64,000 nucleotides of DNA from Pirellulales bacterium (lineage in GTDB: Bacteria; Planctomycetota; Planctomycetia; Pirellulales; JADZDJ01). The stretch is from the NCBI GenBank assembly GCA_963738835.1, contig CAVTYH010000009.1, positions 121,533-185,532 on the forward strand. The letters are read 5' to 3'. How positions within the stretch are numbered: position 1 is the stretch's first letter; every line of letters starts with the position of its first letter. The notes under the pieces were generated by a model, which did not search any database, was not told the origin of the DNA, and was given only the letters and a program-made list of their open reading frames with translations. Both the position numbers and the translations under genes were made by a program. Below, in pieces: positions 4,336 to 6,356 of the stretch.

Positions 4336-6356
4336 TCAAGCTGAAGCCTGACCTACGAGTTTCCTCAGCCGCAATTCGGTGATCTTCAGTTGCTCCCCGG
4401 CGACGATGCGCAGTTCGGTTTGCGGATCGTTCGGCAAGCGACTTTCCAAGATCGCGAGCATTTCGTCGGCCGATTTGCCAGTGGCACAGACGATGAAAAT
4501 ATAACCGAATCGAGCTTCGTATTCTCGATTGCGCTGGGCCAATTTTTCAAGTGTAGCTTGCGAAGCATCGGCAACGCCGGCCTGTTCCCCGCCGGCCCAC
4601 TGTTTGGTGTTGGCGAATTTCGCCCGCAGGCTATCGACATCGCCAATTTTGGGATGCGCCGCGAAGGCTTGCAGCCAATCTTCGCGGTCGAGATTCCACC
4701 AAAACTCGGCCGCGTCGTGCAACAGCAACCGATCGTTCGAGGTGAACGGTCGCTCGACGACCATCCGATCGACCCACCGCTTGCAAGCGCAACATTTCGT
4801 TAGTGCGGCCCGCAACTCGGCTTCGCCGAGGTTGTTGAGATAGGCGCGAATCGACCAGCCGGTTGGTCGTTGATTTTGATCGGGCGTGAGCATCTGACCT
4901 GATGGAGTGTCAATGAACCGACTTTCGTGGAATACCAATTTTCCGCGAACGTATGTGCGGTGAATTTGCCCTTGCAACTGGGCGCCGTCATAAGGCGTCA
5001 GTTTATGGCGATGGTGCAATTGTTCGCCATGGACCGTCCAAGCGGCTTCGGGGTTCCACACGATCAGATCGGCATCAAAACCGGGGGCGATGCGGCCCTT
5101 GCGAGCGGCCAAGCCGACCAAGTTCGCCGGATTGGTTGATAGCCACTCGAAGATCTGGTGCAGTGCAATGCCGCGCTTTGTGGCATTGGTCCAGACGATG
5201 GGCAGCGTGAGTTGCAGCGAGGCGATGCCACCCCAGGCAGCCATGAAGTCACCGGTTTCGAGATGCTTCATTTCCGGCGGGCATGGTGAGTGGTCGGAGC
5301 CGATGGTGTCGATGATGCCGCGCTGCAGGCCGAGCCACAGCACTTCCTGATGCCGCCGCTCACGGATCGGCGGCGCGCATTTGTAGCGCGTGTCTCCGTC
5401 GGGAATCTTTTGACTCGCATGCAGGAACTTTGCAGCTGCTTCATCTGGAATGTTGAAGTTGAATTCCTCTTCCAATTCCATGACCAGCTCGATTTGCTCC
5501 AGCGAATCGGCTTTGTCGGCAGCGAAGTGCAGATAGTGCGGGCAAGTTTCAACCGAGATCGGAACACCCTCGCGCTTCGCCGCCAGGATCGTGCGCAAGG
5601 CGTCGCCGTTGGCTAAGTGTACGATGTGAACATGGCAGTTCGTTTCGCAAGCTAATTTGATGAGCTGCCGAATGGCGTCGGCTTCCCACTGCGGCGGGCG
5701 AGTCGCTAGGTAATCGACGTACCGCCGCGCCGATTTGGGTCGCGGCGCCGGTGCATCTGTCAGTTCCGCATGCACCAGCAGCGGTCGATGGTGCCGCGCA
5801 AAATCGGCGCGGCGGCCTGCAAATCGGCCAGTGTCGCATTGGGAAATTCGTCGAGCCCGGAATGACACAAAAACGCTTTGATGCCCAGCACGCCGGCTTG
5901 AATCAGTGGTTCGATTTGATCGGCATTGACGGGAATGACCCCGCCATAAAAACCGACATCGACCCAGCATTTGCCGGCCGCTGCTTGTCGCTTCGCTTCC
6001 AGCGCGGCGACCGTCGTTGTCACGGGGCTGTTGTTGAGCGGCATATCGACAATCGTCGTCATGCCACCGGCCGCTGCGGCTTTCGTCGCCGTTTCGAATC
6101 CTTCCCACTCCGTGCGGCCAGGTTCGTTGACGTGGACGTGGGCATCGATGACGCCCGGAGCGATCACCCATTTGCCGAAATCTTCGATCGGCACATTCGC
6201 CGGGAGATTCACTACGCCTTCGCCAATTTCCAATACATCGGCAATCTGCTCACCTTCGACTACCACAACCGCCGACCGGATGCCATCGGGAAAAACGACG
6301 CGACGGCTAGCCAAGGCGAATCGCAGCGGCGATGAACATTCGCGGTCCGCACTCAC
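4336..6356 (-). CDS. allB: Allantoinase fused to OHCU decarboxylase (apparent frameshift ~5799)
   Basis: The N-terminal half is in ORF 5760-6356 (GVIDAHVHVNEPGRTEWEGF). It continues in ORF 4336-6171 (LLVHAELTD, HIVHL, ETCPHYL, KCAPPIR, SDHSP). There is no stop before the OHCU decarboxylase domain (RPF..., AAHPKIGD, IFIVCATGKSA). The GTG start overlaps the uricase stop (GTGA). Confidence 0.85.
5407..5511 (-). other. In-frame 35-aa insert resembling acyl carrier protein helix II/III inside allantoinase
   Basis: [35 protein letters not shown] lies between HYLHFAADK and [15 protein letters not shown]. It matches the AcpP motif [27 protein letters not shown] at 18 of 27 positions by eye. Hand-counted GC is 50/105. 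Confidence 0.7.

Follow-up and report, generated by a model that had tools for sequence, protein, structure and literature searches.

We analyzed a 64,000-nt stretch of DNA from a Pirellulales bacterium (GenBank assembly GCA_963738835.1, contig CAVTYH010000009.1, positions 121,533 to 185,532; hereafter the window) and found that an allantoinase gene on its minus strand carries, in frame, 35 extra codons whose product resembles the central part of acyl carrier protein (ACP). We conclude that this insert is an old, domesticated fragment of acpP, and neither an assembly artifact nor a carrier domain. In our reading, the fragment was captured by the allantoinase, was retained, and now forms an ACP-like hairpin that serves as a structural appendage on the catalytic face of the enzyme; we give this reading as a whole a probability of roughly 0.6. 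The features on which it turns are listed here, with residues numbered along the protein obtained once a one-nucleotide frameshift in the deposited sequence, considered further below, is corrected.

4336..6356, minus strand: gene for an allantoinase (AllB)-OHCU decarboxylase fusion, encoding one 673-residue protein only with a G restored at 5799/5798
5407..5511, minus strand: ACP-derived insert of 35 residues (ADSLEQ...ASQK), residues 283-317 of the corrected protein, corresponding to AcpP residues 34-68, approximately
5503..5505, minus strand: TCG codon of Ser285, by alignment the counterpart of the ACP phosphopantetheine-attachment serine (E. coli Ser36)
5461..5505, minus strand: helix II-like segment, residues 285-299 (AlphaFold2/DSSP)
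5425..5445, minus strand: helix III-like segment DEAAAKF, residues 305-311 (DSSP)
5530..5544, minus strand: CPHYL motif, left anchor of the insertion loop, residues 267-271, just past strand beta-7
5362..5382, minus strand: KCAPPIR motif, right anchor of the insertion loop, placed by ortholog alignment

An initial annotation of this DNA, made from the letters alone, had reported about 35 additional in-frame residues at this position. Its minus-strand reading agrees with ours letter for letter, and the extra length is borne out by orthologs, which keep a fixed distance between the two anchors: in 113 of the 120 best allantoinase homologs from a search of 5.8 billion proteins, CPHYL and KCAPPIR are separated by exactly 14 residues. 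The other seven, with spacings of 48-56 residues, are P0001-P0006 and P0009, the last being the public gene call for the window's own gene; a 136-residue JGI fragment (P0411) is an eighth carrier. The six full-length proteins and the fragment found besides the window come from independent Pirellulales-type assemblies deposited at JGI, ENA, and NCBI, two of which (those of P0004 and P0005) are named Pirellulales metagenome-assembled genomes. Sequence identity between these carriers and the window protein is 64-79%, and their inserts, all at one codon position, have diverged from one another.

The distribution of the insert is narrow, with only the closest relatives possessing the loop. Among the matches listed (41-56% identical), all 80 allantoinase loci of other phyla lack the patterns for the insert and its junctions, and two junction-specific degenerate DNA patterns, validated on known loci, revealed no further members in JGI metagenome contigs. 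Profile searches with 43- and 75-residue alignments of the insert or junction, in which only short proteins appeared, returned only ACPs or short allantoinase fragments, with P0411 the one carrier added; this is a weak negative, since the known full-length carriers were not listed either. As a separate observation on this loop, the insert-less ortholog P0028, encoded on a 1.02-Mb contig, reads CPHYLHFEAENSSCRRHALQVCAADPRSRHREL in exactly the insertion loop, which is probably a local double frameshift over 15 residues produced by a pair of assembly indels.

The sequence of the insert identifies its likely source. By direct count, the 18 identities over 27 positions of the E. coli ACP core claimed in the initial annotation are correct, and profile matches uphold its view that the allantoinase barrel contains, in frame, a helix II/III segment that derives from acpP and includes the DSL serine. 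The Pfam PP-binding model (PF00550) aligns to the isolated 35-residue peptide over profile positions 30-53 of 67 (E 4.5e-4) at 20.8 bits, equal to the cut-off, and scores 15.5 bits within the whole protein; it was detected in six of the seven insert-bearing members. Seven NCBIfam families match the insert, all of them acyl carrier protein families (best E 4.4e-11), and the window's 35 residues align to positions 35-63 of 77 in TIGR00517 (E 1.6e-10) with 40.7 bits against a cut-off of 70.45. Searching the PDB with the insert by phmmer gave 104 matches, and a profile of the seven inserts gave 105; all 60 entries listed in each search are ACPs (best E 3.2e-6 and 2.3e-11, respectively, the latter covering ACP residues 34-62/66). 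Across 5.8 billion proteins, the best 120 matches are nearly all full-length ACPs of about 75-87 residues, with a few fragments of 46-56 residues, and the six that carry a taxon name are all from Planctomycetota, four of them from Pirellulales or Pirellulaceae.

Like AcpP (PF00550, TIGR00517), the insert has a DSL serine heading an acidic amphipathic helix, an F-x-x-x-IPD loop, and a short helix III. The motif (D/E)S(L/M) occurs as DSL, ESL, or DSM in all seven inserts, with the serine at the start of the predicted helix II. Unlike AcpP, the insert amounts to about 35 of some 78 residues and is embedded in another enzyme; in addition, all seven inserts share a derived state, E in place of the near-universal D that follows DSL in ACP, together with aromatic replacements at several ACP core positions. 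The complete bundle of four helices (I-IV, about 70-80 residues) is absent, and the statement in the initial annotation that this could not be a free-standing carrier domain, helices I and IV being missing, holds: only part of the profile is matched and only two helices are predicted. We regard the resemblance as beyond chance and the insert as homologous to ACP but not as a PP-binding domain; an acyl-carrier function is not expected. The P0004 insert (ATESIDDGSESLE; locus L006, 1551-3026) is 7-8 residues longer at its N terminus. These additional residues, TESIDD-GSESLE, resemble ACP loop I (TSFVNDLGADSLD), and the tail FQLTGKG resembles IQTVGQA; the longer ACP-like N terminus and tail therefore suggest that the fragment originally captured was of about 43 residues and was trimmed in other lineages.

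Among the explanations that the initial annotation had left open, capture of an acpP fragment is the one supported here, and a chimeric assembly is excluded by the divergent copies of the insert in at least six independent assemblies. A chimera, or a chance or convergent likeness to ACP, might have been suspected from the Pfam score of the single peptide, which merely reaches the gathering threshold, and from the window itself, where blastn and tblastn searches for a donor acpP or a second copy of the insert found only the insert. Against these points stand the diverged versions at one codon position in those assemblies, the ACP-only matches in the PDB and NCBIfam at the E-values given above, and junctions at which we found no meaningful terminal repeats or mobile-element signatures. 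We consider both possibilities already refuted.

The composition of the insert was also examined. The 50 G+C of 105 nt counted in the initial annotation are confirmed at 5511..5407, and the value is, as stated there, lower than in the flanks (0.49-0.50 versus about 0.57-0.69), but it has no diagnostic value: because similar dips occur elsewhere in the allantoinase gene, at 4440-4579 and 4860-5034, we rejected low G+C as a sign of recent foreign origin. We likewise considered the microhomologies IPDE (ACP)/IPDG (allantoinase) and AD/AD as recombination junctions; the junctions fall elsewhere, and we take these matches as coincidence.

Comparison of the seven inserts points to long retention. 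Seven of the 35 columns are invariant (S3, E5, E8, V10, M11, E12, and E14); positions 4, 7, 9, 10, 11, and 13 are hydrophobic throughout, and position 17 is F in five inserts and G in those of P0003 and P0005. Net charge ranges from -7 to -11, and the C-terminal third is variable. The proportion of nonsynonymous differences (pN) is below that of synonymous differences (pS) in all 21 pairs, with pS at 0.55-0.98 in most pairs, indicating synonymous saturation. Insert pN is 0.08-0.45 over the 21 pairs; set at 0.15-0.45 against a core pN of 0.07-0.22, nonsynonymous change in the insert is about double that in the core. The ratio of nonsynonymous to synonymous substitution rates (dN/dS) for the insert is 0.10-0.11 between the window and P0001 or P0002 and 0.1-0.5 elsewhere where it could be computed; for the core it is 0.06-0.12. 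From the saturated synonymous sites, the excess of pS over pN, and the steady length (34-35 residues in six of seven), we conclude that the insert is old and constrained, kept by purifying selection less tightly than the barrel.

The same data bear on whether the insert could be a functionless passenger that the loop tolerates, its constraint serving merely to avoid misfolding or aggregation. Its faster nonsynonymous change and poorly conserved C-terminal third would fit such a passenger, as would the fact that by far most allantoinases function in its absence. A passenger would nonetheless have had to persist through synonymous saturation at near-constant length, with dN/dS well under 1, and decay, stop codons, and partial deletions are absent from all members. 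We therefore view this explanation as unlikely, although it deserves to be kept in mind.

By family tests, the protein is an otherwise complete, ordinary AllB, apart from the split frame in the deposited assembly. The corrected window protein scores 540.3 bits against NCBIfam TIGR03178 (allantoinase AllB; cut-off 357.85), with the match falling into two stretches broken at the insert; Pfam Amidohydro_1 is found on both halves of the protein, together with OHCU_decarbox. The metal-ligand positions H73, H75, K160, H196, H247, and D355 show no variation in 60-90 orthologs, the window protein among them, with ligands assigned from E. coli allantoinase residues H59, H61, Kcx146, H186, H242, and D315 (PMC9863593). 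Across 90 orthologs, the anchors of the insertion loop are also conserved: CPHYL is nearly invariant, K326, C327, and P329 never vary, and A328, P330, and R332 do so rarely if at all. The predicted activity, hydrolysis of (S)-allantoin to allantoate, is supported by homology and by an operon shared with uricase, OHCU decarboxylase, and 5-hydroxyisourate (HIU) hydrolase. The enzyme thus resembles characterized AllB proteins (EC 3.5.2.5; TIGR03178) in its invariant metal-ligand positions, its score above the equivalog cut-off, and its purine-catabolism operon context. It differs from them in the 35-residue ACP-derived helix hairpin between CPHYL and KCAPPIR and, in the window copy, in its fusion to OHCU decarboxylase.

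We predicted structures with AlphaFold2 for the ortholog P0001 (90 sequences; mean predicted local distance difference test score [pLDDT] 94.5) and for the corrected window protein (60 sequences; mean pLDDT 88.6). The ACP-like succession of helix II, loop, and helix III is reproduced in both family members. By DSSP, a 15-residue helix at 285-299 begins at Ser285 (pLDDT about 78-79 in the window protein and 82-85 in P0001), and a second helix spans 305-311 in the window protein and 305-312 in P0001; ahead of the insert, the models place strand beta-7 at 267-271 and then a short helix at 273-277. Top Foldseek matches are the allantoinases 3E74 and 8HFD (E. coli) and 3HM7 (B. halodurans), with E-values of 1e-45 to 1e-47 and TM about 0.9 on the target, and the fold combines a (beta/alpha)8 barrel and a composite beta-sandwich domain. 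The catalytic face of TIM-barrel amidohydrolases is made up of the C-terminal ends of their strands. The insertion site is distinct from both of the dynamic active-site loops described in E. coli allantoinase, A58-R67 and G141-N165 (PMC9863593).

Taken together, these results show that part of a planctomycete-type acpP gene entered the allantoinase gene in frame, probably in the ancestor of a narrow group within Pirellulales, at a catalytic-face loop that runs from beta-7 (ETCPHYL) to KCAPPIR. The captured fragment extends from the last part of loop I through helix II, which bears the DSL serine, and on through loop II and helix III into the start of helix IV. Purifying selection has since kept the piece in the operon-encoded allantoinase of a purine-catabolism cluster, where, by prediction, it retains the local helix-loop-helix structure of ACP; lacking helices I and IV, it is no carrier domain. 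Its hydrophobic face (L4, V/I7, V10, M11, L/V/I/M13, and mostly F17) may pack on the barrel or on a neighboring subunit, leaving the conserved acidic face outward beside the active-site entrance, from which it could affect access, product release, metal loading, or contacts with subunits or partners. The invariant serine would most simply be a helix N-cap.

A different role for that serine has to be weighed, namely that Ser285 is phosphopantetheinylated by a host phosphopantetheinyl transferase (PPTase) of the AcpS or Sfp type, or that helix II docks enzymes that partner with ACP. Ser285 is invariant in all seven inserts, its flanking D/E and L/M and the acidic residues E5, E8, E12, and E14 are conserved, and the predicted helix starts at the serine as it does in ACP. 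Moreover, the insert resembles the PPTase tags ybbR (DSLEFIASKLA), S6 (GDSLSWLLRLLN), and A1 (GDSLDMLEWSLM) in being a short helical DSL peptide inside an unrelated protein (PMC8248378); its beginning, (A)DSLE in the window and DSLE, ESLE, or DSME across the inserts, is like that of ybbR in sequence. Those tags are artificial and known to be modified, whereas the insert is natural. Because such peptides of 11-12 residues suffice as Sfp/AcpS substrates inside foreign proteins (PMC8248378), a segment without helices I and IV, although no carrier domain, could still be phosphopantetheinylated.

Several considerations nevertheless make modification or docking improbable. Helices I and IV are missing, and the Pfam and NCBIfam scores are far under full-length cut-offs; the known chemistry of allantoin hydrolysis requires no thiol arm; and in the contexts examined, no PPTase or ACP-partner gene adjoins the operon. 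Helices are often N-capped by serine, a simpler reason for the invariance of Ser285, and one invariant serine is unexceptional among seven invariant columns of 35. If Ser285 were phosphopantetheinylated, this would be the first amidohydrolase with a 4'-phosphopantetheine arm beside its binuclear metal site. Modification or docking, if real, would equip the enzyme with a prosthetic arm or connect its regulation with lipid metabolism, and the salvage of purine nitrogen would be tied to the metabolism of lipids or CoA.

Returning to capture followed by structural retention, several observations weigh against it or qualify parts of it. The window insert is identical to a planctomycete-type AcpP consensus at 23 of 35 positions and at 22 of 29 over the helix II-III core (ADSL...AEK), compared with 19 of 29 for E. 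coli ACP and 18 of 29 for B. subtilis ACP, but the consensus was built from matches to the insert profile, so the 22-of-29 margin is somewhat circular and only suggestive. In neighbor-joining (NJ) trees, the subclades formed by the window protein with P0001 and P0002 and by P0003, P0005, and P0006 each received 300 of 300 bootstrap replicates; the clade of all seven carriers appeared in one NJ tree with support of only 16 of 100 and 63 of 300, and the insert-less P0008 sometimes nests among the carriers in NJ replicates. One secondary loss, or some recombination, may accordingly have occurred. A single gain is still favored by the alignment, because the insertion point is identical in all carriers and the D-to-E change is shared.

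Other points concern structure and function. The insert reaches a pLDDT of just 70-85 (the flanking barrel exceeds 93), with 6-7 alignment rows covering it; where the hairpin packs, at the entrance or at an interface, and what it does are inferred. Furthermore, S36, L37, the D38-to-E replacement, E41, M44, and E47 (ACP numbering) lie on the face that PPTases contact in the AcpS-ACP complex; conservation therefore cannot separate a structural role from one in modification or docking.

A full-text literature search found no paper that links allantoinase with an ACP insertion, and none is known to us. The case is a clean natural example in which an unrelated enzyme took up a piece of the essential acpP gene in frame and selection afterward preserved it. 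It is also a traceable one, as the donor family is identifiable, insertion-free sisters exist, and several diverged copies can be compared; to our knowledge, few fragment captures that can be traced in this way have been documented in bacteria. It bears on how loops adjacent to active sites gain new elements, and it offers a natural setting in which to ask whether PPTases or ACP partners recognize, in vivo, an isolated ACP helix II/III carried by a foreign scaffold. For annotation, it implies that PP-binding matches inside the amidohydrolases of this clade are neither errors nor carrier domains.

The window copy differs from its orthologs in one further respect, a frameshift 290 nt upstream of the insert, on which the initial annotation was silent. 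This lesion and the neighboring features are as follows.

5798..5799: frameshift site with one G missing (a G in TTGGCG), located by comparison with orthologs
4363..4836, minus strand: C-terminal OHCU decarboxylase domain (Pfam PF09349, E 9e-43, full profile 1-155; TIGR03180)
6353..7264, minus strand: urate oxidase gene, immediately upstream of the allantoinase gene (tblastn with the L002 uricase, 61% identity)
3934..4284, minus strand: gene for HIU hydrolase (transthyretin-like), immediately downstream (tblastn with the L002 homolog, 68% identity)

The window reads ATTTTGCGCGG where orthologs have ATTTTGGC(T/G)CGG, that is, ATTTTGGCTCGG (full ortholog reading, AAAPILARHHRPLLVHAEL). As a result, the allantoinase gene is not a single uninterrupted reading frame in the window: frame A ends at 5760 and the remainder runs in another frame that restarts upstream, and restoring one G between 5799 and 5798 yields an uninterrupted protein of 673 residues. 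The lesion is present in the deposited assembly, because the public gene call P0009 begins (MHAEL) just past the shift. A sequencing or assembly indel error is the probable cause, given that the genes for xanthine dehydrogenase and a major facilitator superfamily (MFS) transporter, both in the window, are shifted as well.

Were the frameshift genuine, the window allantoinase would be a real pseudogene and the insert would lie inside a decaying gene. The presence of the shift in the public gene call is compatible with this, the missing G belongs to a GG dinucleotide and not to a long homopolymer, and the xanthine dehydrogenase gene, which acts in the same pathway, is broken as well. The shift in the unrelated MFS transporter gene, 30 kb away, points instead to a general indel error rate; related long ENA contigs show similarly split genes; and all 673 codons are otherwise open and conserved, with a core dN/dS against P0001 of 0.10. 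A true pseudogene thus seems doubtful to us.

The large subunit of xanthine dehydrogenase (12361-14846, plus strand) is divided among three frames, 12361-13503, 13547-13804, and 13806-14765, and its second shift is an extra G in AACGCGCGTCGTG. The MFS transporter (35363-37004, minus strand) lies in two overlapping frames that match Pfam MFS_1 over profile positions 7-221 and 191-345. Both indels that could be resolved, the second xanthine dehydrogenase shift and that in allantoinase, occur in a GCGC(G) context, which may reflect a systematic error of long reads or at a methylation motif. On the ENA contig of locus L003 (1-5422), xanthine dehydrogenase and XdhC genes are fragmented into products of 344+469, 184+98, and 292 residues, where L002 has 835, 282, and 495; long ENA contigs of this kind appear to be indel-prone assemblies.

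Near the window's allantoinase gene are also two M20 amidohydrolases, a cupin, xanthine dehydrogenase, and XdhC. The genes and operons of the other carriers are intact and share one order, with uricase, allantoinase, OHCU decarboxylase, and HIU hydrolase genes and, upstream, xanthine dehydrogenase, M20, and cupin genes. The C-terminal OHCU decarboxylase fusion, also not mentioned in the initial annotation, scores 175 bits against TIGR03180 (UraD_2; cut-off 139) in the corrected window protein. OHCU decarboxylase is encoded by a separate gene in the other insert-bearing orthologs, and it is fused to allantoinase in many insert-less relatives (P0007, P0008, P0012, P0013, P0020, and others). Fused and unfused forms thus coexist in the clade, and fusion and fission must therefore both have occurred.

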